Shown: positions 5,920-54,576 of the stretch, in pieces
How positions within the stretch are numbered: the first letter of the stretch is position 1
How the letters are laid out: the number at the start of each line of letters is the position of its first letter
Source: a virus
Lineage: Duplodnaviria; Heunggongvirae; Uroviricota; Caudoviricetes
Virus record (IMG/VR): IMGVR_UViG_3300021400_004456
Length of the DNA stretch: 64,000 nucleotides
Direction: 5' to 3' (one strand)
Program-made: the position numbers and the translations under genes
The notes under the pieces: generated by a model
Databases searched by the model: none
What the model was told of the DNA's origin: nothing
The model's input: only the letters and a program-made list of their open reading frames with translations

Positions 5920-6390
5920 ATGTTCCGAAAATTAGTTTCATATTGGTTAGGTTTAGGTGCAGTAGTAATTTCAGCTTTAAGTTTAGCTTCTTGCAAAGAA
6001 ACTGAATTAAATACACCAACAAATTTAGTTTATGATAGAGTTGAAAAAGTAAATGATGTAGATGTTCGTATTTACACAAGAGCTTTAAATAATAAACTAG
6101 TTGCAACAGACACTATTGTTCAATGCAATGATGATTTTAAAGAACTATTTTTAAATGATTTTTCTCTTTATAAAGATTATGATTTTCAAAAGAATTCGTT
6201 GTTAATATTTTCATTAGATGAAGTTAATTATACTAATGCTTTAGGACCTCGTGTTACAGCATTGGATGATGGTCATTTACAAATCACTTTTAATAAAGGA
6301 AAATCTTCTAATTATGTTACTTTCGTAGAATTGTATGATTATAAAATAAATAGCTATGATTTTGATATTATTGAAAACGTATTAAATTAA
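5920..6390 (+). CDS. lipoprotein
   Basis: Signal peptide ending in lipobox LASC. AAGGTGA RBS. Confidence 0.55.
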   Translation: MFRKLVSYWLGLGAVVISALSLASCKETELNTPTNLVYDRVEKVNDVDVRIYTRALNNKLVATDTIVQCNDDFKELFLNDFSLYKDYDFQKNSLLIFSLDEVNYTNALGPRVTALDDGHLQITFNKGKSSNYVTFVELYDYKINSYDFDIIENVLN

Positions 6391-7940: not shown

Positions 7941-8102
7941 ATGAAAAACATTAAAACTAAGCAAAATAAAAAATTGCCAAACCCTATCAATAGACTATTA
8001 ATTGAAAAAAGAGTTCATATGACAATTACTCCAACTAAAAAAGAAAAACAAAAATGTTTAGATAAAATTCAAAAGCAAAAAGGCTATGACCTTTCTTATT
8101 AA
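7941..8102 (+). CDS. small basic protein
   Basis: 53-aa ORF hand-translated (not in the ORF track, which has a 60-aa floor). AAAGGAG RBS. Terminator at 8102-8130. Confidence 0.35.
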   Translation: MKNIKTKQNKKLPNPINRLLIEKRVHMTITPTKKEKQKCLDKIQKQKGYDLSY

Positions 8103-8130
8103 TCCTCCCACAAAGAGGATTTTTATTTTA
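8102..8130 (+). terminator. Rho-independent terminator
   Basis: Stem atcctc/gaggat followed by ttttatttta. Confidence 0.5.
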
Positions 8131-8149
8131 TTATGAAAGGATGATAAAA

Positions 8150-8353
8150 ATGCAACAAATGACACCAACGCCAACTTCAAATAAAAAATTTATTTTATTT
8201 ATTATTTTAAAAGTTTTCTTTTTAGCTTTAATTTCTGTTGCCATTACAATAGGTTTATATTTCTTAATTAAATCCCATTTGCCAACACCTGTTTATCCTG
8301 GCCCAATAATCGATGATCCAGTTCCAGTAATTCCTTATAATTCATTTTTTTAA
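8150..8353 (+). CDS. small membrane protein
   Basis: ATG 8150 has proper GGA spacing; the ORF-track start 8141 abuts the RBS. One TM helix. Confidence 0.4.
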   Translation: MQQMTPTPTSNKKFILFIILKVFFLALISVAITIGLYFLIKSHLPTPVYPGPIIDDPVPVIPYNSFF

Positions 8354-8482
8354 AAAAACATAAGAAAAATGTATCTTATTAAGCTAGAGGGAATTTTAGT
8401 AGTAAATCTTATTGGCTTTAATATTATCATTTAACTTTTTAATCTTTCCTTTCCGTTGAATGATAATATCAAGATAAACAAA

Positions 8483-8516
8483 AGACACTCACTTTTTCTA
8501 TCGAGTGTCTTTTTTA
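8483..8516 (+). terminator. Rho-independent terminator
   Basis: Stem agacactc/gagtgtct followed by ttttt. Confidence 0.55.
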
Positions 8517-8558
8517 GTTTATATAAAACATAATAAAACAGACAGGAGGCCGATAAAA

Positions 8559-10439
8559 ATGCGAAAAAAAACACTATTATTTTCAAGCTTTTTAATACCT
8601 CTTTTTCTTTTGACATCTTGTAATTTTAATGTGTTCGAACAAAATTTTATTACCGAAGAAACTAATGCTTCAAATATTGATATAAATCCACAAACCAACT
8701 TTGAAATAAAATATAGATTTGTTTATAATAATGAAATAATTAACACTTTTGTTCAAGAATTTGAACAAGAAATTGTATTAAAAAAAGCTGATATTCCGTT
8801 TGAACATTTATCTGAACAATATGAAATAGAAGATTGGTATTCTGATCAAGAATTGGCAACTTTATTTTCGGATACAATAGAGATTAAAACGAATTTAGAA
8901 ATTTTCATCAAATTGAATTTGAAACAAAAAGTAGAATGGAGTGTTTTATCTGCTCCAACTACAACATCTTCCGGTTATGTAGCAAAAAAAGAAGGTGCAA
9001 CTATTAAGTCGTACACTTTGCCTAAACTAAATGAAACTGATTATTTTGTATCTAAAGATGCTACGAATTGTAATGCTAGACAAATAATTACTTATAAAAT
9101 ATATATTGAAGGTAATCCTTTTACTTTTACGGCATTAGGAGAACAAAATTCACATTTATTTAATAATTTTGAAATAATAACAATTCCTACCGAAAACACT
9201 TTAGGAAAATATAGAAGATATTGTGCTAATTGTGATTTTTATGAAGATATTAATTTACCTTCTCTTAATAATTCCGATTATTTAGAAACAGAACTAAGTC
9301 AAAAAAGTTGTACAGAAGATGCAATTTCTAATTATACCTACTTAAATAATTTTGGATTAGACTATTATCCTTTATCCTTTAACTATATAAAAGAAAAAGC
9401 CGGTCATACATTAGAAAAGATTTCTGAAAGTGAAGAATATTATTTAAAATCTGATGGAACATTTTTCAAAGAAGCCGTTTATGTGTGTTCAAAGTGTAAT
9501 GAAGTTGTAAAAAAACAAGAAACTTATGTTCCGCCTAAATTATATGACTTACATTTTATATATTCCGATAAAAGAAATGATTCTACTTTTTTAAGTATTC
9601 CTGATAATAGAGAAATAGATTTTTCTAATTATTTAAATATGGAAGAAATTGAAGGAGTTTATATTGATTCGGCTTATACTCAAAAAGTGCCTCAACAAAT
9701 GTATTTAACTAATAATACTACTTTATATGTAAAAATCAGACGAACTTACAGTTCTGACAATCCGTTTGCTCCTACTGAAAATTATATTCCACAAGTTTAT
9801 GATTTTTCAAATCCATCGTTTAACTTTTATAATTTATCTTTAAATACTAAAACGACAGATATTCAAAATCATTATTCTTATTTTTCTTCTACTGGGGATA
9901 CAAATATAACTTCAACGATAGATGTTGAAACAGATAAAATTAAATTGTCTTTTAATACATTTAAAGAAATAGCTAAATCGTCAACTTTCTCTGGTTCTTA
10001 TTCTTCCGTTGATAATAGAACTATGAATGTTAATGGAAAACAATCTGCTAATTTTAAAGATTCTATGACAATAACGGTAAATAATAAATCTAAAATTATT
10101 GATGCAAATTGTCAAATATCTTTTAATGAAAATGCCGTTGGCTATGACACAGAAACAATTTCTTTAGCTTTAAATGGAACCGTTTATTATACTTTTGACT
10201 ATAAAGATAAGGACGACAATTCTTTTGTGGGTTATTTAAATTTAACTTTTACAACTGATGCCAAAACAGGTAAAATTGAAATTAAAGTTTCGGATTTTTC
10301 AATAAAAGCATCAATGTCAAATTTAGATACTTTTAATTGTCATTTAGAAAACAAACTAATTTCTACAACATCATATCAAGTTAATAATATTTTTGAGGAA
10401 GGATATGCTGAAACTTTCCTAAAATTAAATGTTAAATAA
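8559..10439 (+). CDS. large lipoprotein
   Basis: Signal peptide with lipobox LTSC. ACAGGAGG RBS before ATG 8559. The ORF-track 8505 start is upstream of the RBS and terminator. Confidence 0.6.
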   Translation: MRKKTLLFSSFLIPLFLLTSCNFNVFEQNFITEETNASNIDINPQTNFEIKYRFVYNNEIINTFVQEFEQEIVLKKADIPFEHLSEQYEIEDWYSDQELATLFSDTIEIKTNLEIFIKLNLKQKVEWSVLSAPTTTSSGYVAKKEGATIKSYTLPKLNETDYFVSKDATNCNARQIITYKIYIEGNPFTFTALGEQNSHLFNNFEIITIPTENTLGKYRRYCANCDFYEDINLPSLNNSDYLETELSQKSCTEDAISNYTYLNNFGLDYYPLSFNYIKEKAGHTLEKISESEEYYLKSDGTFFKEAVYVCSKCNEVVKKQETYVPPKLYDLHFIYSDKRNDSTFLSIPDNREIDFSNYLNMEEIEGVYIDSAYTQKVPQQMYLTNNTTLYVKIRRTYSSDNPFAPTENYIPQVYDFSNPSFNFYNLSLNTKTTDIQNHYSYFSSTGDTNITSTIDVETDKIKLSFNTFKEIAKSSTFSGSYSSVDNRTMNVNGKQSANFKDSMTITVNNKSKIIDANCQISFNENAVGYDTETISLALNGTVYYTFDYKDKDDNSFVGYLNLTFTTDAKTGKIEIKVSDFSIKASMSNLDTFNCHLENKLISTTSYQVNNIFEEGYAETFLKLNVK

Positions 10440-10453
10440 GGAGGCATTGAAAA

Positions 10454-11455
10454 ATGAAAAAGAAAATTTATAAATTTTTATCATTGCTTTTAGTTTTCAC
10501 TTTCTTTTTTTCTTTAACTTCTTGTTCACTATTTAATTTTGATGAAACTAAATCTGATATTCCATCAACTACTTTTATTAAAAATACAGATCCTGTTATA
10601 GATATTCCGACTACAGAAGATGGTGGATTATCTGAGGAAGAATTACAAATTAAAAAAGAAGAAATGGAGTTAAAACTTCAATATGAAGAACTAGTAGCTC
10701 AAAGAGATGAATTAAAACAACAATTAAAAGCTCTCGAAGAAAAATATCAAGTAAAGGTTTCTGCTATTGATGAATTAAGACAAAAAATTATAGAATTAGA
10801 AAATGAAATAGAAATTAACTTTTCTAATTTTACTTATTTAGAAAACGTTGTTTTAACTTCTTCTCTTTATATTAAGCATACATCTAAAAGAATTGAAAAT
10901 AGAACAACTATCATTTCTACCTCTCAAGGTTCGGGTTCTATTATAAAAGAAGATGGCGAATATTATTATTGCTTAACTAACAATCACGTAATTGCCGACG
11001 AAGTATTAGTTAGTGAAACATCTACCTCTGTTTATGATTTTTATGGCAACGAATATAAAGCTGAAATAATTATGGCATCGCCTTCTTATGATATGGCAAT
11101 TTTAAAAATCCAAAAAAAGCCAAATGTATCTTTAAATGTAATAAAATTTGCTAAAAACAATCCTGTAAAAGATGATATTGTTATTTCTATTGGTAATCCT
11201 TTAGGCTTAATCAATTCTATTCAATATGGTAAAGTTGTTAGATATTCATCAATATCATCAGTGGCTTATGATGTTATTTGCCATAGTGCAATTATAAAAC
11301 AAGGTTCTTCTGGTGGTATGCTTTTAAATAAAAATTTTGAAGTTATAGGTATAAATACTTGGGGACTTTCATCTGAAACTGAAAGCTATGGTGGAGCTTC
11401 CCCTGTTATGCAAATTTATACATTTTTAGATATGGTTGGAATAGAGGTGAACTAA
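10454..11455 (+). CDS. lipoprotein S1-family (trypsin-fold) serine protease with coiled-coil linker
   Basis: Lipobox LTSC. Catalytic motifs TNNHVIADE (His), D, and GSSGGML (Ser). GGAGG RBS. Confidence 0.65.
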   Translation: MKKKIYKFLSLLLVFTFFFSLTSCSLFNFDETKSDIPSTTFIKNTDPVIDIPTTEDGGLSEEELQIKKEEMELKLQYEELVAQRDELKQQLKALEEKYQVKVSAIDELRQKIIELENEIEINFSNFTYLENVVLTSSLYIKHTSKRIENRTTIISTSQGSGSIIKEDGEYYYCLTNNHVIADEVLVSETSTSVYDFYGNEYKAEIIMASPSYDMAILKIQKKPNVSLNVIKFAKNNPVKDDIVISIGNPLGLINSIQYGKVVRYSSISSVAYDVICHSAIIKQGSSGGMLLNKNFEVIGINTWGLSSETESYGGASPVMQIYTFLDMVGIEVN

Positions 11456-11456
11456 T

Positions 11457-12368
11457 ATGAAAAAGAAAATTATTTTTATCTTATCGTTATTTTCATTTAT
11501 TCTACTTTTTATTCCAGGAAAAGTTTATGCTGTAGATGAAACTGATTATAAAACCGATTATAGAGAATATTATCAAGATCAAATTGATATTGTTAGTAAA
11601 GAAATAGATAAACTTGAAAATCAAATTTCAAATTTAGAAAGTGAATTGAAATCACTTGATGCAATTTATCAAGAGCTTTCTCTTTATACTTTTAGCTATA
11701 CAATGGATGATTTAACTAATTGGTTTAATAAATGCAATGATGCTAAAAAATCAGTAGTTTCTATTACTAGGAAAGAATATAATGTTAATTTTGCTTTAAA
11801 AGAAACAACATCTGATTATAATTATTATAGTGGTGCAATTATAAAATATAATTCAAGTAAAAAATATTATTACGTTTTAACTACTTATGATACAACAAAA
11901 GAAAGTGGTTTATATTTTAAAACCGATTATATAATTACAGATGGCTATAACAATGAATATTCAGCTAGTATATATAATTCTAGTTCAAAATATAATTTAG
12001 CAATCTTATATTTTTCTTCTGGCGATAAAATTAGTGAATTAAATACTATAAATTTATCTCAAACTTCTATTCAGGGAAAACAAACAAATGAATTATTATG
12101 TAATCTTTATTACTTAGATGAAACTAAAATGTCTCATTTAAACTTTTCTAAGTTTTTAACTTACAAAACAGATGAAATCTATTCTTATCCTTATTTTGTT
12201 AGTAATATTGATAAAGAAAATGCTTTAGGCTCTATTGTTTTAGACTATTCTGGCCAAATGATAGGAATAACTGTTAAATCTTATTATATAGATGATATTT
12301 GTTATTCTTATAATATGGATGTTTCTAATGTCAATTCTTATTTAAAATCAATCTCATTTGTAATATAA
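11457..12368 (+). CDS. secreted protease-like protein, catalytically inactive paralog of 10454-11455
   Basis: Same architecture (signal peptide, coiled coil, trypsin-like core), but His is replaced (YYVLTTYD) and GxSGG is replaced (DYSGQ). Confidence 0.5.
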   Translation: MKKKIIFILSLFSFILLFIPGKVYAVDETDYKTDYREYYQDQIDIVSKEIDKLENQISNLESELKSLDAIYQELSLYTFSYTMDDLTNWFNKCNDAKKSVVSITRKEYNVNFALKETTSDYNYYSGAIIKYNSSKKYYYVLTTYDTTKESGLYFKTDYIITDGYNNEYSASIYNSSSKYNLAILYFSSGDKISELNTINLSQTSIQGKQTNELLCNLYYLDETKMSHLNFSKFLTYKTDEIYSYPYFVSNIDKENALGSIVLDYSGQMIGITVKSYYIDDICYSYNMDVSNVNSYLKSISFVI

Positions 12369-12421
12369 TTTTTCTAAAACATAATCAAGATTGTTAAAGT
12401 TAATAACTGGAGGAAATTAAT

Positions 12422-12877
12422 ATGGATAAAATTTATGAATTAAAGAAAGATTATGGTTTAAATGAAGAAGAAATTAAGAATTTAACCATTAATGAAAAAA
12501 GAGCCATTATGGAGGTTGAAGACATCTTTGAAAGAGCAACTAACAAAGCTTTTGCAAAGGCACTTTTCAATATTATTCAAGGCGCAGTTCCAGCTTATAG
12601 TCTACAATCAGAAGTATTAAATAGAATTAATTATTCTTATAGTGAAGGTGAAACTTGTACAATTAAAGAGTTAGCTGAATTAGGGGCTAATAATTTATAT
12701 ATAAAAGTTTCTGATGATATAACTCTTAATATTTATGATGAAGATTATAGTGAATTATCAAAATATAATTTAACTCCTGAAACAGAAGTTGTAATTGACG
12801 AAATTCCTGATACTGATGAAGGATTTACTGTTATTTATGCTAATTTAATTGATGGAGATGAGGAGGACGCTGAATAA
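12422..12877 (+). CDS. hypothetical acidic protein
   Basis: 151 aa with acidic C-terminus. GGAGG RBS. Confidence 0.5.
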   Translation: MDKIYELKKDYGLNEEEIKNLTINEKRAIMEVEDIFERATNKAFAKALFNIIQGAVPAYSLQSEVLNRINYSYSEGETCTIKELAELGANNLYIKVSDDITLNIYDEDYSELSKYNLTPETEVVIDEIPDTDEGFTVIYANLIDGDEEDAE

Positions 12878-12878
12878 T

Positions 12879-13052
12879 ATGTTTGAGAATACATTACGAA
12901 ATAAAAAGAAGTCAAATAAATGGGATGAACCTGCATTTGATACTTCTAATATGACACCTGCCGAAAGATTTTTCTGCCCTACTAGATTAGAGTATGAAAT
13001 TGCATCTGAAATGGTCGATGATGATTTAGAAAGAAGTAAAGGAAGCTACTAA
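12879..13052 (+). CDS. small hypothetical protein
   Basis: GAGGAGGA RBS before ATG 12879 (the ORF-track 12849 start overlaps the upstream gene). Terminator hairpin overlaps the stop. Confidence 0.4.
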   Translation: MFENTLRNKKKSNKWDEPAFDTSNMTPAERFFCPTRLEYEIASEMVDDDLERSKGSY

Positions 13053-13066
13053 AAGCTTCCTTTTTT
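13041..13066 (+). terminator. Rho-independent terminator
   Basis: Stem ggaagct/agcttcc followed by tttttt. Confidence 0.6.
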
Positions 13067-13108: not shown

Positions 13109-14107
13109 ATGTGGACTACATTAAAGATAAAATGGGCATTACTTTCTAAAACAATTAAATTTTTTATTTTATTTTTATTGTTTACTATTATTGGCGGAAC
13201 TGTTTTAACGATAGTTTTAGTTAATAATATTAAAACTCCTGAAAAAACTTTAACTCCTGAGGAAAAAATTTCTTACTTTGAAGCGAATAATGAAGCCTTT
13301 ATTCAAACAAATTACAACTTAGAAGAAACTACAATATCTTTTTCTATAAAAAATAATGAAGGCTCTAAATTTCCTTTATTAAAAGGTCGTTATGTAATTT
13401 TTAAAGATGATTCAAATTTAGAAATTGAAGACACTGATTTTTCTTTAATTCCAGCTAATGATTATTTTTTCAAGAGTAGTTATCAAATAGATAACGATAC
13501 ATCTAAATATCAAATAAGATTTATTATTAAATATGAAGAACCTTCTACACTTTACTCTACACTTTGCGCTTATGAATCCCAAAAGTTTTTCATTAAAGAA
13601 CCTGTTGTAGAAAAGGCTAAAGCTCCTGCATTATTAGGAGACTATATGAACAAACTTGGTGATGAAGCTTATGCTACCACTTATTCTTGTTATCAATTAG
13701 AAGATCAAAAATGGCTATTGTTAGTACTTCAATGTAATAGAATTCCTACATTGACGGCTCAATACTATGTAGGTTCTAATGTTGAATGGACTGCTGTTTA
13801 TAATATTACTCAAACTGATGTAACTAACGAAAATGCCTTCCCTAGCGCTGATGATAGTGAAGGACAGCCAACTCCTTATATATGGAAGGGTTTATCTGGA
13901 AGATTAACAAAAGACTCAAAAAAATATACATTAAAAAATGGTGCTAAATTTGAAAATGGCAAATTCATATTAGGTGCAACCACATCTGAATTTGATTTAG
14001 ATTTTAACATTACTTCTAGAGATACTATGAATAATTTTATAAATGCAATTAAAAAAGCATATTATATTTCTTTACAAAACAAAGATATTTATAAAGCTAA
14101 AAATTAA
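13109..14107 (+). CDS. membrane-anchored protein
   Basis: N-terminal TM/signal-anchor. AAAGGAG RBS. Confidence 0.5.
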   Translation: MWTTLKIKWALLSKTIKFFILFLLFTIIGGTVLTIVLVNNIKTPEKTLTPEEKISYFEANNEAFIQTNYNLEETTISFSIKNNEGSKFPLLKGRYVIFKDDSNLEIEDTDFSLIPANDYFFKSSYQIDNDTSKYQIRFIIKYEEPSTLYSTLCAYESQKFFIKEPVVEKAKAPALLGDYMNKLGDEAYATTYSCYQLEDQKWLLLVLQCNRIPTLTAQYYVGSNVEWTAVYNITQTDVTNENAFPSADDSEGQPTPYIWKGLSGRLTKDSKKYTLKNGAKFENGKFILGATTSEFDLDFNITSRDTMNNFINAIKKAYYISLQNKDIYKAKN

Positions 14108-14108
14108 A

Positions 14109-14119
14109 TTAAAACATAA
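14109..14119 (+). promoter_or_regulatory. class-B motif
   Basis: ttaaaacataa, 35 nt before ATG 14154. Confidence 0.5.
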
Positions 14120-14153
14120 TAACAATGGACTTATTTTTATAGGAGGAATTGAT

Positions 14154-14768
14154 ATGAAGAGCAAAATGATTTTACTTGTTGGAAAATGTGCTGTAGGCAA
14201 AACAACATTTGAAACAGCAATTAGATATGATGATGGTATTCCCGTTAATAATATAATGTCATTAACTACTCGACCTATGAGAGCTAATGAAAAACAAGGA
14301 GTAGATTATCATTTTGTTTCCAACGAAGAATTTGATAAAATTATAGAAGAACAAAAGCCTTATGAGCAAACGGCTTATACAGTTAATGGTGAGTTATATA
14401 GATATGCTCTTGTCCCATCTGCTATTTCAGATGATAAAGTTAATATTGCTGTAGTTAATCCACACGGATTAAAACAATTAATGAAAACTGATTTAAAAGA
14501 TAGAATTATAGTTATTCATATAACGTCAACCACACAAGAAAGAATTGAAAGATATTTGTCTCGTGAAGATTTAACTGATACTAATGTTTATAAGCGATTA
14601 GTTGAACGCATTGTTCAAGATGAAAAAGATTTTGGTTCTTTAGATGACTTTGTAGAAAAACTTTGTAAAGAAAATGGCATTGAATACATTAATTATGTTA
14701 ACTCTAACGTTTTGAATGTGAAAGATGCTATTAATAACTTTAAAAGTTTATTTTGTCAATTTTTATAA
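14154..14768 (+). CDS. gmk: guanylate kinase-like nucleoside monophosphate kinase
   Basis: P-loop GKCAVGKTT. The segment TTRPMRANEKQGVDYHFVSNEEF..NGELYRYAL matches the guanylate kinase signature (TTRxxRxGExDGxDYxFVSxEEF..YGT). AGGAGG RBS before ATG 14154. Confidence 0.65.
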   Translation: MKSKMILLVGKCAVGKTTFETAIRYDDGIPVNNIMSLTTRPMRANEKQGVDYHFVSNEEFDKIIEEQKPYEQTAYTVNGELYRYALVPSAISDDKVNIAVVNPHGLKQLMKTDLKDRIIVIHITSTTQERIERYLSREDLTDTNVYKRLVERIVQDEKDFGSLDDFVEKLCKENGIEYINYVNSNVLNVKDAINNFKSLFCQFL

Positions 14769-15852: not shown

Positions 15853-17091
15853 ATGAAATTTAAAAATATATTATTATCTGGCTTTGCATTAACTACTTCA
15901 TTGCTTACTTTGGTATCCTGTGGTGAAAAAAATATTGATGATGCTAATTTAATTACTGATGAACCAACAGAAGTTCAGCCGATTAGAAATACCGATAATG
16001 AAATAGTAGATGATGTTGATAATCCTATAAATAACAATGAAAACATTTTCGTTAACAAACATATCCCAAACATTACTTTAGCAACAGATGAAGATAAAAC
16101 AGATCATTCAAACGTTGAACAATCTTTAATAAACGTTTCTAATTTTGCCGAATATTCTTGTGTTCAAGTAATAATTGAAGATGAAAATAACGAATCGACG
16201 GGTTGGGGCTCCGGTGTAATTTATGCTTTCGAAAATGAAGAAACCTACTATGTTTTAACTAACACTCACGTAGTCAAAAACTCAAATAATTTTTCAATTA
16301 AAACTGCTTATGAAACAGTAGATGCCCAATTAATTGGTTATTCGAATTTATATGATGTAGGTTTTTTAAAATTTACATCCGATAAAACCTATAACCTTAC
16401 AAAATTCACGACAGATGTAACTAAGGCATCTTATTGTGTTGCAGTAGGAACTCCATTAAAAAATCAATTCTTCAATTATAATACAGTAGGAAATGTTTCT
16501 TGGTATGATGAAGATAGTATTTATCATACAGCTTCTATTAATTCGGGTAATTCCGGTGGTGGCTTATATAACTTAGATGGTATTTGCCTTGGGCTAGATA
16601 ATCTGAAAGAATCAGGAACAACAACATTGAGTGGTACTTTTATTGAGGACGTTTATCACGCTGTTTCAACAAATGCAATTATTAAAGCTGTAAACGAATT
16701 AACAGCTCCTAAATTAGGCATTACTTCAATTGAAATTTCTTCTGTTGTATCTATTGCAACTGAATTTGAAACTTATGATTTATATGAAGCTTATTTAAGA
16801 CAATATCAAGCCGAACCTATTTCAAAGGAGAGGTTTGATTTCTATAAAAAATTTGTTAAAAATCATCCTGATATTACAGCAGGCGAATTAATTGAAAATG
16901 TAGCCGAAAATACAAATTCCTATAATTTAATTCAAAAAGGAGATATTTTATTAAAAGTAGATGATATAGAAATTTCTTCTATTTCAACCGTGAGAAGTGT
17001 TTTAGCAACTAAAAAGCTTGGAGACACTATTACATTTGAAGTTTTAAGAAATGACAAAACTATTACTGTTTCAGTTCCTTTAAATAAATAA
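15853..17091 (+). CDS. HtrA-like lipoprotein serine protease with C-terminal PDZ-like domain
   Basis: Lipobox LVSC. Trypsin-fold motifs TNTHVV (His) and GNSGGGLY (Ser). C-terminal PDZ-like segment (GDILLKVDD..ITFEVLRNDK). AGGTGA RBS. Confidence 0.65.
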   Translation: MKFKNILLSGFALTTSLLTLVSCGEKNIDDANLITDEPTEVQPIRNTDNEIVDDVDNPINNNENIFVNKHIPNITLATDEDKTDHSNVEQSLINVSNFAEYSCVQVIIEDENNESTGWGSGVIYAFENEETYYVLTNTHVVKNSNNFSIKTAYETVDAQLIGYSNLYDVGFLKFTSDKTYNLTKFTTDVTKASYCVAVGTPLKNQFFNYNTVGNVSWYDEDSIYHTASINSGNSGGGLYNLDGICLGLDNLKESGTTTLSGTFIEDVYHAVSTNAIIKAVNELTAPKLGITSIEISSVVSIATEFETYDLYEAYLRQYQAEPISKERFDFYKKFVKNHPDITAGELIENVAENTNSYNLIQKGDILLKVDDIEISSISTVRSVLATKKLGDTITFEVLRNDKTITVSVPLNK

Positions 17092-17175: not shown

Positions 17176-17250
17176 CCCTTTAATTAATTCTTTTTCATTT
17201 TTTCTTTAAAACATAAAAATGTCGATATAAAAAAATATGGAGGAAATGTG

Positions 17251-18321
17251 ATGAAAAATACCAATGAAAAAGAATATATAGAAAATGAAGCTGAAGATAT
17301 TGAAACTGAAAATAAAAATGAACAGCTTGATAGTAACGATCCTCGTTATTTAAAGTTAAAACAACGTTCATATAATTTTTTAGTTAATACTATCGAAAAC
17401 TTAAAGATTTCTTCTCGTAAAGACGAAAATGCATCAAAGATTGAAATGTTAGAATTAACACGCAAATTGTTTGATGCGAGAGATTCTGGCGACAAAAATG
17501 CTATTTATAAAGCAACTGAAAATTTGTTAATGTGCAAATATTTCTCTGCTTTTATAAACGATCAAGCTATTAAGTGCCGTCAAATCAAGAAGGACGGGAC
17601 TAATTCCACGGTTTCAATTCAAGATTTTAAGTCTGAAATTTATTTAACTTGCTGGACTTGGCTTAAAAAATATACTGGTGTAACAGATTCCGGATATTTT
17701 TGTAGTCCTATCACTTTCGTAACTTATCCAATTTTAGAATCTTGTAGACAATTGGATAATAGCTTAGGACATCCTATCACTATTAAGTCTAATGCTACTC
17801 GTGTTTCAAAATTCTATAAGAAGATTGGAGAAAGCCTTGATAGTGCATTTGAAAGAGCACTTTTAAGTTATAAGAGAACTCTTGAAGCTAAATTTTCTAA
17901 GGAAACTAAGAATTATATTTCATTAGATTCAACAGTATCTGATACTAATAATCGTTCTTATGGAGAGGTTATTGGAGATACAGTTGCTGATACAATTTCA
18001 GATAATAATAAGACAGACATTTTTGCTAGAATGCAACAAGAAGAAATGATTCAAATTTTAACTAAAGACTTTAGTGAAAAAGAATGTATGATTTTTAAAT
18101 CTTGTTTCTTTGATGGCGGTTTATATATACCTGAGTCTGAAAAACAAAAAACAATGACTGCCGAAGAAGTAAATAAGGCCATTCGTCCAAAATACACTCT
18201 TTTGGAAAGCGAATTAGGCATTTCAAAATCTGATATTAAAACGACTTATACTAACTTAATCAAGAAGATTAAGAATGATCCGTATAAAATGGAATATTTA
18301 AATTCTTTAAGAAAGCACTAA
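17251..18321 (+). CDS. possible divergent sigma-70-family factor
   Basis: The C-terminal HTH (MTAEEVNKAIRPKYTLLESELGISKSDIKTTYTNLIKKIK) resembles sigma region 4, and a central aromatic-rich segment resembles region 2. The assignment is tentative. GGAGG RBS before ATG 17251. Confidence 0.4.
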   Translation: MKNTNEKEYIENEAEDIETENKNEQLDSNDPRYLKLKQRSYNFLVNTIENLKISSRKDENASKIEMLELTRKLFDARDSGDKNAIYKATENLLMCKYFSAFINDQAIKCRQIKKDGTNSTVSIQDFKSEIYLTCWTWLKKYTGVTDSGYFCSPITFVTYPILESCRQLDNSLGHPITIKSNATRVSKFYKKIGESLDSAFERALLSYKRTLEAKFSKETKNYISLDSTVSDTNNRSYGEVIGDTVADTISDNNKTDIFARMQQEEMIQILTKDFSEKECMIFKSCFFDGGLYIPESEKQKTMTAEEVNKAIRPKYTLLESELGISKSDIKTTYTNLIKKIKNDPYKMEYLNSLRKH

Positions 18322-21451: not shown

Positions 21452-22711
21452 GTGAAAACTGCATTTGCAAAATTATTCTTTGCTACTCTTGTCGCTTCAA
21501 TCGGAACAATAGAAGCAACGACTGTAATGGAAAATTTAAACAATTCAGCAGAAAAAACCTCAGCTTATCTTTCTGAAAATCTTGATATTTTAAATTCGAT
21601 AAACCAACAAATGGGAAACGAAAATTCAATTTCATCTGTTGAAAATATTTTTAAAGTTACAGCTATAAACGAAGATGAAACAACTGAAACAGCGTATTTA
21701 TCAGATTTTAAAAATAATGAAGGATATTATCTTTTAGCTGATGAATATAACTTATTAGATTGGCAAATAAATGTAGAACAACCATTTCATCAATATATGA
21801 ATACCAATTATGAATTTTATTTTGATGTTGCTAATGCAAGCTACTACATAAAAAAAGATGACATCTTTGTTTCGGTTCTAGGAGAAGATGATTCTTTAAA
21901 CACATTAGAAGCAAATAATCCTGTATGGAAGTCTCAAGACACAAATTATGCTGGATACGGTTCATTAATAAATGCTGATGAATATATTAAAGAAGCTTAT
22001 GATGATAAATATAAAATGGTATCTAGTTCTAGTTTAAATTATATACCTAACGAAGGACAATTTGAATTGTCTGTTTATATTCATAAAGGAAAAGACGGAG
22101 TTTATTCTGAAGGAAATTGCGGTGTTGTTAGTGTTTATAACGCTTTAAATTGTTATAAAAGAAACGGTAAAATGAGTCAATTGCCTTCTGAAACCGAAAA
22201 AGTTAAATATGTTGCTTCAAAAGAAGAACCTACTTTATATAATAAATATTTATCAAAAGATAATTATTTTGTGAATACAAGTTCGACTTTTCCTAAATTA
22301 TATTTAGATGCAAGAGCATCTGCTATAGATATAAAAGGCAAAAGTGAAGGCTTGACAATTTTCCAATCAGCAAGAACATTTGAAAAAACTGCCAAAAAAT
22401 ATGGTTATACTGTAGATTGTGATACTTATCCCGGATATTGGAAATTTTATACCAATAAAGTTAAAAAGAAAATAGATGATGGTTACGCTTCTTTGTTCTC
22501 TACAGGAACCGGTTCTTATAATTCTCATACAATGTGTGTAACGGGTTATAAAGTGTATGAAAAAACCGAAAATTTTGCATTTTTAACTTATACTAAAAAA
22601 GTAAATTTATTAGAAATTTCTGATGGACATCACAAAAATCCAAGATATTATGATGTTACTGCCTACAATTCATTAATTGCAGGTTATGTTATTATCTCTA
22701 GTATAAATTAG
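21452..22711 (+). CDS. secreted papain/NlpC-like cysteine peptidase candidate
   Basis: Signal peptide. A GNCGVVSVYNALN segment (candidate catalytic Cys) and a downstream HTMCVTGY segment (candidate His). GTG start with AAAGGAGG RBS. Confidence 0.45.
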   Translation: MKTAFAKLFFATLVASIGTIEATTVMENLNNSAEKTSAYLSENLDILNSINQQMGNENSISSVENIFKVTAINEDETTETAYLSDFKNNEGYYLLADEYNLLDWQINVEQPFHQYMNTNYEFYFDVANASYYIKKDDIFVSVLGEDDSLNTLEANNPVWKSQDTNYAGYGSLINADEYIKEAYDDKYKMVSSSSLNYIPNEGQFELSVYIHKGKDGVYSEGNCGVVSVYNALNCYKRNGKMSQLPSETEKVKYVASKEEPTLYNKYLSKDNYFVNTSSTFPKLYLDARASAIDIKGKSEGLTIFQSARTFEKTAKKYGYTVDCDTYPGYWKFYTNKVKKKIDDGYASLFSTGTGSYNSHTMCVTGYKVYEKTENFAFLTYTKKVNLLEISDGHHKNPRYYDVTAYNSLIAGYVIISSIN

Positions 22712-23113: not shown

Positions 23114-24655
23114 ATGAAAATTAAAAAAGTTTTATCAGTTGCAGGCTTTGCATTAGCTGGCTTATTTACAATAACACTAGCTTCTTGCAATAGCAAATAT
23201 ATAGGTGATAAAGATACAGCCACTATTCCAATTACTAATGTTGAACCGAGTGGCTCAAATATAACCCCTGTAACTCCACCAGTAGAAGAGCAACCGGTGG
23301 ATAATTCTAATGTTACAGAAACTCCAGTTGTTCAAACAACAGAAAACCATATTCATAAAACTTTCGCTACAATGAAAACCAAGTGGCCTGGATGTGGTGT
23401 TGAGGGTGAAGGTTATAAATATTGTACAACCTGTGGTGCTAGATTAGAAAATGTAACATTCCCAAGTTTAGGAGAACACAATTATCAATATTTAGTGTCT
23501 AAAATTCCTACTAAGACTTCCACTGGTATTTTAACAAAACACTGTACTAAATGTTATGACACAACAACAGTTGTTTTGCCGAAAGTAGATGAAGAAAATT
23601 ATACTTCGTACACAAAATCCGAATCGGTATCGCCTTGTACAACAAGTGGTATTATAGGCTATACTTATGAAGTTGATAATCAAACTATTGATATTGGCTA
23701 TGTTTCAATGGAAACTTTTGATCATCATAATTGGTCAAATTATACAATTGCAATTAATCCATCAAGTTCACTTAATGGTATTGCTCAAAGAAAATGTTTA
23801 ACTTGTGGTGCTTTTGAAAACTATGTATTACCTGCATTTAATGAAGCTGGTAATGATGTTTATGAATTAACAGTTACAGTTGAACCAACTTGTATTTCTA
23901 CCGGTAAAGGTTATTATACTTTAAAAACTGAGACTGGTTTAGAATTTGAAGCCGAATACGAAATTCCGACAAGTGATCACACTTATGGCCCATATTATAT
24001 AATTTCTAAACCTACAATGTTTGAAACAACATCGTTAGAAAATCCTGGAGATACAACTGAAATGCATTCAAATGCTGGTCAAGCTGTAGCATATTGTACA
24101 TATTGTGGCTTTGCAAATGGTATAACTTTACCACCACTTAATAGTGGATATTATACTGTTGAAAATGTTTCAGATGCTACTTGTACAGCAACAGGCTTAG
24201 CTAAGTATTCAATTACACTAAAAGGCGAAACATTTACAATCGATTATGAGGTTCCAAAGTTAGGTCACGAACCTGTGGCTAAATTTGATTATACATTTAC
24301 TTATACATATTCTTATAGTTATACTGATAATGACAATGTTTTAACTGGTTCTAATACTTTCACTGTTGATTTAACCAATGTTAATGAGACAACGGCTAGT
24401 GAATATTTAGCAGTACACGCTGATGAATTAAATGCACTTGCAACTTCTAAGTTAAGCGATGGTCAAACATTAATCAATGTTTCAGTTGCTGATACAAACA
24501 GTGATGAAGCATCTGCTTATGTAATTGTATGCAGTCGCTGTGGTGCAAGTAAAGAACAAATGATTAAAGATATGGACAATCGAGAACTTACAGATTACTT
24601 AAAGAAATGGGTAAATGAAAAATATAAAGAAGCCATCGAAAAAGGCGAAATTTAA
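23114..24655 (+). CDS. lipoprotein with repeated CxxC zinc-ribbon-like modules
   Basis: Lipobox LASC. At least five spaced CxxC(G) pairs (CTTCGA, CTKCYD, CLTCGA, CTYCGF, CSRCGA) suggest repeated Zn-ribbon modules. AGGAG RBS. Confidence 0.55.
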   Translation: MKIKKVLSVAGFALAGLFTITLASCNSKYIGDKDTATIPITNVEPSGSNITPVTPPVEEQPVDNSNVTETPVVQTTENHIHKTFATMKTKWPGCGVEGEGYKYCTTCGARLENVTFPSLGEHNYQYLVSKIPTKTSTGILTKHCTKCYDTTTVVLPKVDEENYTSYTKSESVSPCTTSGIIGYTYEVDNQTIDIGYVSMETFDHHNWSNYTIAINPSSSLNGIAQRKCLTCGAFENYVLPAFNEAGNDVYELTVTVEPTCISTGKGYYTLKTETGLEFEAEYEIPTSDHTYGPYYIISKPTMFETTSLENPGDTTEMHSNAGQAVAYCTYCGFANGITLPPLNSGYYTVENVSDATCTATGLAKYSITLKGETFTIDYEVPKLGHEPVAKFDYTFTYTYSYSYTDNDNVLTGSNTFTVDLTNVNETTASEYLAVHADELNALATSKLSDGQTLINVSVADTNSDEASAYVIVCSRCGASKEQMIKDMDNRELTDYLKKWVNEKYKEAIEKGEI

Positions 24656-40419: not shown

Positions 40420-40857
40420 ATGATAAAAACAAGTTATTTTGCTAAATATAAGAAACCTAATGGTGTAGCAATAACTCTTTATCCACCTAAGTGGTATGAT
40501 GGCCCTGTATATAAAGATTTAGCTCCTACTGAAAAAATTTTAGCTTGGTTTAAAGGCTTACCTAAAGAAGAACAAGAAACTCCTAAAACTGCTAGAATTT
40601 ATGAGACTCTTTATAGAAGAGATGTATTAGCTCACTTAGATGTTCATAAAGTTGCTAATGATTTAGAAAATAAAGTTTTACTTTGTTATGAAACATCAGA
40701 TAAATTTTGTCATAGACACGTTGTAGCTAAATGGCTACGTGAAAATGGATATGAATGCCGTGAAACTGAAATGAATGATCAAGATTTATATTTGTATTAT
40801 GGTAAACTTTATGAAATGTTTGGTGATAAATTACAAATCTTAGAAAAAGAAAAATAA
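40420..40857 (+). CDS. DUF488-family protein
   Basis: The C-terminal ..VLLCYETSDKFCHRHVVAKWL matches the DUF488 signature (LLCxE..xxCHR..IA.WL). Confidence 0.55.
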   Translation: MIKTSYFAKYKKPNGVAITLYPPKWYDGPVYKDLAPTEKILAWFKGLPKEEQETPKTARIYETLYRRDVLAHLDVHKVANDLENKVLLCYETSDKFCHRHVVAKWLRENGYECRETEMNDQDLYLYYGKLYEMFGDKLQILEKEK

Positions 40858-53787: not shown

Positions 53788-54576
53788 ATGGAAAATAAGG
53801 TAATGGAAAATAAGAAGACGTTTTATGAGAAGTTCAATGAGGTTCAAATGAAGCTTAGCGCTCCAAAGAATCAAACAAACGATTTTGGTAAGTATCAATA
53901 TCGTAGTTGTGAAGATATTTATGAAGGCTTAAAACAAGTTCTACCTGGCACAGGTTTAGTTGTGACTGTATCTGATGACTTAATGATTGAGCGATCAGCT
54001 ACTGATCCTAATAGACTTATATTTATTATTAAGGCTGTAGCAACTGTTTCAGATGGCTCTGATAATTCTTTATCATCAACAAGCTATGCTCAAGTTGATC
54101 AACACAAGGGTATGTCAGCTGAACAAACGTTTGGTACTGCATCATCTTATGCACGTAAATATGCTTTAAATGGTTTATTTATGATCGATGACAATAAAGA
54201 TGCTGATAGCACTGAAGTAACGAAAAATGATGCTGTAAAGAGTAATACTCCTACTAAGCAACCTGCTAAGAATGTTGTTCAAAATAAGAACAATACTCAA
54301 AAACCAGCTAGTGCCCCTGCTCAAAAACCAGCTAGTGCCCCTGCTCAAAAACCAACTAATAATCCTAAAAAGTCTGAAGGTGGAGCAAATAATGCTAAGA
54401 AACCTACTCTTGATAAGGAACTAGTAGCAAAGGCTAAGAAATTAGGAATTGCTGCTGATAAGTTAGCTGCTTTCTTAAAAAAGAAGCCTAATGAATTAAC
54501 AGATGCTGATTTACTATATGCTGTCAATGCTAAGGAACAAGAATTAGCAAAGAAACCTCAAGAAACTAAAAAGTAA
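53788..54576 (+). CDS. erf: ERF-family single-strand annealing protein
   Basis: The N-terminal domain resembles phage Erf proteins (..FYEKFNEVQMKLSAPKNQTNDFGKYQYRSCEDIYEGLK.. and ..SSYARKYALNGLFMIDDNKDAD..). The C-terminal tail is low-complexity with a KPASAPAQ tandem repeat. Confidence 0.7.
   Translation: MENKVMENKKTFYEKFNEVQMKLSAPKNQTNDFGKYQYRSCEDIYEGLKQVLPGTGLVVTVSDDLMIERSATDPNRLIFIIKAVATVSDGSDNSLSSTSYAQVDQHKGMSAEQTFGTASSYARKYALNGLFMIDDNKDADSTEVTKNDAVKSNTPTKQPAKNVVQNKNNTQKPASAPAQKPASAPAQKPTNNPKKSEGGANNAKKPTLDKELVAKAKKLGIAADKLAAFLKKKPNELTDADLLYAVNAKEQELAKKPQETKK
54301..54348 (+). repeat. perfect tandem duplication of a 24-nt unit (aaaccagctagtgcccctgctcaa) inside erf
   Basis: Two identical consecutive copies encode KPASAPAQ twice in the low-complexity tail. 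Confidence 0.7.

Follow-up and report, generated by a model that had tools for sequence, protein, structure and literature searches.

A two-gene cassette encoding an exported serine protease and a catalytically dead relative was found in a large, phage-like metagenomic element. The cassette lies in a 64,000-nucleotide stretch of DNA (hereafter the window; IMG/VR record IMGVR_UViG_3300021400_004456, Caudoviricetes) that forms the first 64 kb of a 163,889-bp metagenomic scaffold (ENA ERZ1756080), has a GC content of ~27% and carries nearly all of its genes on the plus strand. Gene A (10454..11455, +) encodes an S1C (HtrA-like) serine protease with an intact catalytic triad, and gene B (11457..12368, +) encodes a pseudoprotease of the same HtrA/trypsin fold in which the three catalytic residues have been replaced. 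Genes of the two types recur side by side, the two proteins have diverged in step, and purifying selection on B is at least as strong as on A. The balance of the evidence tips, modestly, towards A and B forming a conserved surface cassette in which B is a non-catalytic subunit or adaptor that joins A in a hetero-oligomer, tuning its activity or bringing it substrates. A preliminary description of the window, made by eye from the letters, had paired an active S1 protease lipoprotein with a dead paralog, and both open reading frames (ORFs) are present where it had placed them. All features of genes A and B located below lie on the plus strand.

Gene A (333 aa, TAA stop) is preceded by a GGAGG Shine-Dalgarno motif (10440..10444), read from the sequence, which lies 9 nt 5' of the ATG. 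The protein begins with a signal peptide and lipobox (10454..10525; aa 1-24, MKKKIYKFLSLLLVFTFFFSLTS-C24); the stretch ...FFFSL-T-S-C24 conforms to the lipobox pattern [LVI][ASTVI][GAS]C, and acylation of the cysteine is predicted from this match. In an AlphaFold2 (AF2) model with a predicted local distance difference test score (pLDDT) of 89.9, an N-terminal helix (aa 3-24) and a disordered linker are followed by one continuous, coiled-coil-like helix of 76 residues (aa 61-136; 10634..10861; pLDDT >90), which runs directly into the first beta strand of a two-barrel domain; a single helix (aa 318-328) follows the last strand. Multiple weak matches to coiled-coil families were also returned by the Pfam scan over aa 56-135. 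The protease domain (10862..11452; aa 137-333; triad columns extracted against 57 relatives) matched Pfam Trypsin_2 (E 2.3e-19) and Trypsin (E 2.4e-13), and its best matches in the Protein Data Bank (PDB) were HtrA/DegP chains (best E 4.9e-15). The motifs LTNNH178VIA, SYD213MAIL and QGSS286GGML align with the triad columns of more than 40 active relatives and of a second protease gene of the window (15853-17091), and the triad is therefore complete, as had been proposed: H178 (10985-10987, cac), D213 (11090-11092, gat) and S286 (11309-11311, tct).

The domain of A is of the S1C type, and A is not a canonical HtrA. No PDZ domain was matched in A at E<=1 in the Pfam scan, the protease domain reaching nearly to the C-terminus, and it is because A lacks this domain that its match to the NCBIfam Do family (TIGR02037) stays at the level of the protease domain, with 94.5 bits against a full-length cut-off of 416.2. 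A match to DUF31 (PF01732) was sub-threshold (E 9e-4; 19.4 bits against a 27-bit cut-off). Translated searches (tblastn) of phages with A gave generic DegP/DegS-like matches only, many of them in host-contaminated records. Membership of a defence system was considered and rejected, as the PADLOC profile RT-Protease_XI was matched by A over its protease part alone (profile positions 322-489 of 506) and B gave only weak coiled-coil matches to that collection.

Gene B (303 aa, TAA stop) follows the same plan. Its signal peptide (11457..11531; aa 1-25, MKKKIIFILSLFSFILLFIPGKVYA before VDE; helix 4-17 in the model) is of the signal peptidase I (SPase-I) type (...PGKVYA/VDE), with no cysteine and no lipobox. 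An AF2 model built from a 47-sequence alignment (pLDDT 90; predicted template modelling score 0.76) shows the signal helix, two stalk helices (aa 35-75 and 83-99; 11559..11753), the second of which bears the motif W89-F-N91-K-C93, and two beta barrels that make up the pseudoprotease domain (11754..12365; aa 100-303). Foldseek matched this model to HTRA1, Deg1, AlgW, DegQ and DegP at E ~2e-11 (probability 1.00; target-normalised TM-score ~0.8). The relationship is also seen between the sequences: B is 29% identical to A over 150 aa in BLASTP (E 3e-8), a profile of the B family can be aligned with A along the full length of the domain (hhalign probability 99.4, E 2e-21), and the same profile matches PDB HtrA/DegP at E 3.6e-10. 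The single B sequence matched no protease family in Pfam, PHROG, NCBIfam or PADLOC, where only weak coiled-coil noise was returned, and a fold search of BFVD gave generic viral trypsin-like matches only.

In every alignment the same residues of B fall in the triad columns: the histidine is replaced by D145 (LTTYD; 11889-11891, gat), the aspartate by N180 (KYNLAIL; 11994-11996, aat) and the serine by L257 (ENALGS; 12225-12227, tta). The preliminary description had noted loss of the histidine and the serine; the former is borne out, and the aspartate can be added to the list. Its placement of the lost serine in 'DYSGQ' does not stand, although the loss itself does: 'DYSGQ' (aa 263-267) aligns with 'NKNFE' of A, in the turn past the active-site strand, and the true counterpart of GxSGG is N-A-L-G-S (aa 255-259). 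A shifted but complete triad is unsupported, because the whole protein contains one histidine (H227) and the B family has no conserved serine. By its sequence, B is therefore a pseudoenzyme in which the fold has been kept, the catalytic residues have gone and no other catalytic set is conserved.

The relatives of B were sought with an exhaustive phmmer search of 1.84 billion representatives, which returned 37 matches at E<=1e-3, nine of them at E<=1e-10. Full-length B-type proteins account for about 20 of these, and every one of them lacks the histidine and the aspartate at the triad columns, where variable non-catalytic residues are found, and all but one (P0133) lack the serine; the nucleophile column, occupied by L257 in the window copy, holds Y, A, E, F or N in its relatives. 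Three motifs are found in these proteins and are missing from the A-type ones: W-[FL]-N-x-C, on the helix before the first strand, and P-[VI]-C-N-I-[YF] and N-H-M-N-F-S, on the first two strands of the second barrel. The residues conserved in the B family and not in A are W89 (18/20), N91 (17/20), C93 (17/20; 11733-11735), C215 (18/20; 12099-12101), N226 and H227 (15/20, with S, Y, A or C in the other five; 12135-12137). From this pattern, C93, C215 and H227 may form a disulfide or a metal site; in one member, P0136, both cysteines have been lost together. A lipobox takes the place of the SPase-I signal in P0132, P0135, P0137, P0141 and the partner protein at locus L009.

Neither the family nor the stalked, PDZ-less A-B cassette is covered by Pfam, NCBIfam, PHROG or PADLOC, and neither was found in the literature search. 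The exhaustive phmmer search was required to reveal the family: a word-indexed homology search returned B itself only, or five proteins when the B profile was used, tblastn of B against INPHARED phages and PLSDB plasmids gave no match, and scans of IMG/VR with the B-family alignment and with B alone found no relatives. For annotation, the label 'hypothetical' can now be exchanged, in these proteins, for 'S1C-like pseudoprotease, partner of a coiled-coil S1C protease'. Further triad-less relatives (P0142, P0143, P0151 and P0162; 390-450 aa) carry a different N-terminal domain and resemble the active Flg_new-type proteins P0147 and P0161; triad loss may, as judged from these sequences, have recurred in the wider clade that contains them.

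Proteins of 250-320 aa in which lipobox, coiled coil and protease domain follow one another in the same way are the nearest relatives of A (E 1e-46 to 1e-31). A coiled-coil A-type gene followed directly by a B-type gene was seen in six distinct lineages, that of the window included, and every evaluable locus shows the pair. Loci L003 and L012 are ~97% identical and were counted as one lineage; L009 and L010, and L016 and L017, were grouped likewise. The partner next to the A-type gene matches the window B at E 3e-29 in L003 and at E 7e-35 in L007; B-type partners also follow the A-type genes of L009/L010, of L012, which belongs to a metagenome-assembled genome (MAG) of Clostridium sp. CAG:307, and of L016/L017. 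The partner in L008 is a diverged 259-aa protein that aligns with the B profile at E 4.8e-10 (hhalign); here the genes overlap, and the junction is therefore outside the comparison made below. A contig of an Anaeroplasma sp. MAG starts within a B gene, and B alone is visible there.

The junction between the two genes is conserved as well. In the window, a GAGGTG Shine-Dalgarno motif for B (11444..11449) lies within the last codons of A, whose TAA (11453-11455) is separated by 1 nt from the ATG of B; the 1-nt gap is repeated in L016/L017, and a GAGGTG or GGAGGT motif lies over or beside the stop codon of A in L003/L012, L007, L009, L016 and the window. The flanking genes vary from locus to locus, and include defence-like ATPases, a two-component system with a Mur ligase, a GH2 gene, and a MiaB-like gene with YlbF; A and B therefore travel as a unit. 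No dead neighbour accompanies the more distant active relatives at L023, where the coiled coil is missing, or at L021, where Flg_new repeats are present, and the idea that dead partners are a general trait of the wider clade was rejected for this reason. As judged from the sequence records, low-GC bacteria, with Anaeroplasma and CAG:307 MAGs as their representatives, are the native setting of the cassette; within the protein collection, the cluster of A proteins of the CAG:307-MAG type by itself contains 827 sequences. Since the pair recurs as a unit in genomes of these types, the dead copy is best regarded as a maintained partner rather than a decaying duplicate.

The history of the two genes was examined through their pairwise identities at seven loci and a neighbor-joining (NJ) tree. 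The A-A identities correlate with the B-B identities (Spearman 0.88, p 2e-7). Within one locus, A and B are 22-28% identical in every lineage. In the tree, the B proteins fall without exception into a single clade, recovered in 68% of 200 bootstraps; a second clade (66.5%) holds the paired A proteins and P0013, and at no locus does A group with its own B. Since B is monophyletic and the within-locus identity is low everywhere, a single old duplication followed by joint inheritance is indicated. Recent local duplication was rejected on the same two grounds; thus the dead paralogy set out in the preliminary description holds, and an origin of the paralog on this element does not. The window copies of A and B are roughly equidistant from all bacterial copies, which is consistent with the cassette having moved as a whole, long ago, between the element and its host lineage.

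Comparison of the window contig with a 94%-identical variant (JGI 3300028591, L013) gave a ratio of nonsynonymous to synonymous substitution rates (dN/dS) of 0.12 for B, 0.17 for A and 0.04-0.18 for seven neighbors. B is therefore maintained, on the evidence of this ratio and of the ~20 diverged family representatives that have kept motifs of their own, and its co-inheritance with the active gene fits a partner role.

The two genes appear to belong to a longer transcription unit. Terminator-like hairpins, identified by pattern match, at 8101..8121 (+) and 13038..13063 (+; 10-bp stem and T-run) mark the probable 5' boundary of the unit and the probable 3' boundary of a unit spanning 8141-13052, respectively; a scan with the terminator consensus found four sites in 5.2 kb, against 1.0 expected from shuffled sequences. 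A scan for sigma-70-like promoters gave no more matches than the shuffled expectation. The hairpin-bracketed unit of six genes, comprising a 70-aa membrane ORF, a 626-aa lipoprotein, A, B, an acidic 151-aa ORF and a small ORF, is probably an operon.

Taken with the structural predictions, a working model can be proposed. A would be a lipid-anchored S1C serine protease held at the cell surface on a long helical stalk, and B an exported, non-catalytic paralog built on the same stalk-plus-trypsin-fold plan. B would have been born once, by ancient duplication, and would have lost the histidine, aspartate and serine while gaining W-F-N-x-C, P-V-C-N-I-Y and N-H-M-N-F-S. The two genes, which have been inherited together, would be co-transcribed and probably translationally coupled; B would join A through the helical stalks, the trimer interface of HtrA-type proteins, or both, and would tune the activity of A or select and bring its substrates. 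Activation and restraint are both compatible with this model. The copy in the window would be an accessory module, probably acting on the surface of the host cell.

Several observations weigh against this model. B diverges faster than A, with between-lineage identities of ~30% for B and ~41% for A, which could mean that the main ligand of B varies more than A does. The AF2 models give A a continuous stalk of 76 aa and B a shorter one of 41 + 17 aa, and the anchoring is different too (a lipobox in A, an SPase-I signal in B); co-assembly of A and B is therefore not self-evident. The tree is a simple NJ tree built from 192 domain columns, with moderate bootstrap values for both clades, and the host assignment of the cassette is taken from two MAG record titles. 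In the 71.6 kb inspected, no structural phage genes were found, IMG/VR, INPHARED and PLSDB gave no match, and the element may be a phage, a plasmid or something else. The authors of the study of MamE and MamO, discussed below, could detect no physical interaction between those two proteins (PMC4794232).

The system can be compared with several that are already known. HtrA, DegP, DegQ and DegS (MEROPS S1C; TIGR02037) resemble A and B in their two-barrel S1C fold and in being exported or membrane-associated; the TNxHV, D[LM]A[IV]L and G[NS]SGG motifs are shared by A, and for both proteins HtrA-family chains rank first among the matches in sequence and in structure. A and B differ from them in having no PDZ domain and in carrying a long N-terminal helical stalk, which is not found in canonical HtrAs, and B lacks the entire triad. 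Partnerships between an enzyme and a dead paralog are a known kind of system: those between eukaryotic proteases and pseudoproteases, such as iRhom/ADAM17 and cFLIP/caspase-8, are well documented, and HtrA-fold pseudoproteases are known too (MamO and RsgI9).

In a literature search on bacterial trypsin-fold protease-pseudoprotease pairs, MamE/MamO of magnetotactic bacteria was the only one found, and it is the closest known analogue of the A-B pair. In both cases an active HtrA-like gene and a dead HtrA-like paralog lie in one cluster and the dead copy has been retained. MamE has PDZ domains, whereas A has none. The pseudoprotease MamO is needed, non-catalytically, for MamE-dependent proteolysis; a fused TauE-like transporter domain is required for this activation, MamO binds metal through a pair of histidines, and it has kept two of the triad residues, His and Asp, but has Thr in place of the nucleophile (PMC4794232). 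B, a soluble or anchored protein of 303 aa, consists of signal peptide, helices and barrels, matches no transporter family, has one histidine and has all three positions replaced. There is no specific sequence relation between the two systems: A scores 63 and 33 bits with the MamE and MamO models, against 800-bit cut-offs, and these matches are generic.

Two further systems can be set beside A and B. RsgI9 of Clostridium thermocellum (PDB 7sjy) has an extracytoplasmic, protease-like S1C-like domain that has been described as cellulose-binding (PMC12203970); it offers an S1C fold with a binding role in a Firmicute and is a Foldseek match of B (E 1.7e-10). It differs in belonging to an anti-sigma factor that also contains an NTF2 domain, in having no paired gene for an active protease and in lacking a helical stalk. 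In the MIB-MIP system of Mycoplasma, a tandem of an immunoglobulin (Ig)-binding protein and a thrombin-like Ig serine protease, MIB is Protein-M-like, with an arm and the domains M1 and M2 (PMC7935358). The likeness lies in the tandem arrangement of a protease and a non-catalytic partner at the surface of Mollicutes and is one of function only. MIB is not a trypsin-fold pseudoenzyme, as B is, and MIP is a large DUF31-type protease, a family to which the match of A is sub-threshold; membership of A and B in the MIB-MIP system was accordingly rejected.

Instead of joining A, B might act alone as a non-enzymatic binder of a peptide, a polysaccharide or a metal, through its old cleft or a new surface, and merely be co-expressed with A in a shared pathway or location. 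This explanation is possible but on the whole doubtful. Precedents are available, as MamO binds transition metals through surface histidines (PMC4794232) and the RsgI9 domain, described as cellulose-binding (PMC12203970), is among the structural matches of B; the residues conserved in B alone, of which both cysteines are missing from P0136, and the faster divergence of B would also be accounted for. It leaves unexplained, however, the strict adjacency of the genes in the evaluable lineages, the Shine-Dalgarno-in-stop junction, the correlated divergence and the retention of the same helical stalk in both proteins, and no ligand is pointed to by the neighboring genes, since these vary between loci. 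The linkage that counts against an independent binder is equally expected if B restrains A. In that event B would be a dead subunit or decoy, at the oligomer interface or the active site, that keeps the protease latent until it is removed by a signal; in effect, it would be an inhibitor or immunity partner acting in trans to protect the surface proteins of the producer. The bacteria to which the cassette is assigned include Anaeroplasma, which is wall-less, and a protease at the surface would have open access to their own proteins there. The activity of HtrA proteases is known to need contacts between protomers, and dead subunits could therefore damp it (cf. the title of PDB 3mh6). Restraint is nevertheless regarded as unlikely: the data do not separate inhibition from activation or targeting, MamO, the one bacterial case that has been studied experimentally, promotes the proteolysis of its partner, and the loops of B align with those of A without large indels, with no recognizable inhibitor-like insertion.

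The two remaining explanations dispense with a non-catalytic role for B. Cysteine proteases with a chymotrypsin fold exist, and C215 and H227 are conserved and sit on neighboring strands of the second barrel, and so B might be a protease with a shifted or non-canonical catalytic set, e.g., Cys215/His227. This is very improbable, as C215 is away from the nucleophile position, which is occupied by L257, H227 has been replaced in five of 20 members, the His and Asp columns are variable, and B would have to work with the one histidine that it has. Finally, B might be a functionless, decaying product of a recent tandem duplication of A, as the adjacency of the genes, their common architecture and the loss of all of the catalytic residues might suggest. 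It is hardly credible that this is so, given that the dN/dS of B is at or below that of A and most neighbors, that the ORF is intact in every lineage, that orthologs as little as 21-31% identical to the window B have kept their own motifs, and that B proteins form one clade with the same low identity to A at every locus.

The model in which B is a non-catalytic partner of A can be carried further in one direction, which is speculative and considered quite unlikely. The B family would be a novel, stalked kind of pseudoprotease with a metal-, redox- or ligand-sensing site (Cys93/Cys215/His227) and would form, with A, a heteromeric membrane-tethered protease on Anaeroplasma/CAG:307-type bacteria of the gut and rumen; a jumbo-phage-like element would have captured the cassette to re-cut the surface proteins of its host. 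Were this so, the protease could bring about superinfection exclusion by destroying receptors, or could process the seven lipoproteins of the element itself to maturity. The cassette is compact (two genes, ~300 aa each), occurs in several poorly studied low-GC MAG lineages and is amenable to direct biochemistry; its study could reveal how an HtrA-like enzyme comes under the control of a dead subunit.

The cassette lies within a lipoprotein-rich block. All seven ORFs of the window that encode both a signal peptide and a lipobox, starting at 5920, 8559, 10454, 15853, 18395, 22762 and 23114, fall between 5920 and 24655 (+), a span of 19 kb on the 5' side of the replication genes, and a reasonable reading of the block is that it is an accessory block for surface remodelling. 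The block holds A-B and also a second, PDZ-bearing S1C protease, which suggests that surface proteolysis is an accessory function of the element. That second exported protease is encoded at 15853-17091 (+) and had been described before as HtrA-like, with a PDZ domain; this is confirmed by matches to Trypsin_2 (2.4e-15) and PDZ_2 (2.6e-11), a lipobox (LVS-C) and an intact triad (LTNTH/LYD/GNSGG). Its C-terminal PDZ domain makes it the more canonical HtrA of the two. Its identity to A is 30% across the domain (E 5e-11), and no dead partner lies beside it. A further peptidase, papain-like, had been suggested at 21452-22711 (+), and this suggestion was not upheld: the candidate has no match in PDB, NCBIfam, PHROG or PADLOC, and only a sub-threshold match to Peptidase_C39_2 (E 1.2e-3; 19.8 bits against a 24-bit cut-off). 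By eye, its segments GNCGVVSVYNAL and NSHTMCVTGY resemble C39-type Cys/His motifs.

Other genes of the block are less readily assigned. The large lipoproteins encoded at 8559-10439 and 23114-24655 (+) share a ~60-aa CxxC module (YCANCDFYEDINLPSLN / KCLTCGAFENYVLPAFN; BLASTP E 8e-8), which is present in several copies in the latter, and neither matches any family. A 357-aa orphan is encoded at 17248-18321 (+); its C-terminus, ELGISKSDIKTTYTNLIKKIK, looks like the helix-turn-helix of sigma-factor region 4, and its only family match is a weak one, to Colicin_immun (E 1.4e-3). The mechanical start of the ORF at 14043-14768 (+) overlaps the preceding gene, and the gene call on the contig starts near 14154; from there the gene encodes a guanylate-kinase-like protein of 204 aa (E 4e-15), a nucleotide kinase between lipoprotein genes.

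The element that carries the cassette is a large mobile element of at least 164 kb, phage-like in look and possibly a jumbo phage. Its window genes for replication and nucleotide metabolism and their neighbors encode a Thg1-like protein, a Band7/flotillin protein, NrdG, the guanylate-kinase-like protein, a Toprim primase-like protein, an NAD-dependent ligase, NrdD, PolC, a type IA topoisomerase, a DUF488 protein, an ERF recombinase and a single-stranded DNA-binding protein; a UvrD/RecD-like helicase, an MPTase-PolyVal protein, an AAA protein and a DHH protein are encoded just past the window. Most other ORFs of the window match nothing, and the window contains no tRNA genes. A scan of IMG/VR with a 1389-aa orphan protein found no relatives, and tblastn of PolC against phages was uninformative, with ~36% identity to Firmicute-type PolC. 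The use of TGA as a sense codon was considered and rejected, as TGA ends six of the 61 plus-strand ORFs and read-through would add only a few codons. MPTase-PolyVal domains are typical of the polyvalent proteins of phages and conjugative elements; the one encoded here lies at 13618-14139 of L019. Three accessory genes of the window are unusual for a replication module: those for the Thg1-like tRNA-His guanylyltransferase (1406-2215), DUF488-N3a (40420-40857) and the ERF recombinase (53788-54576).

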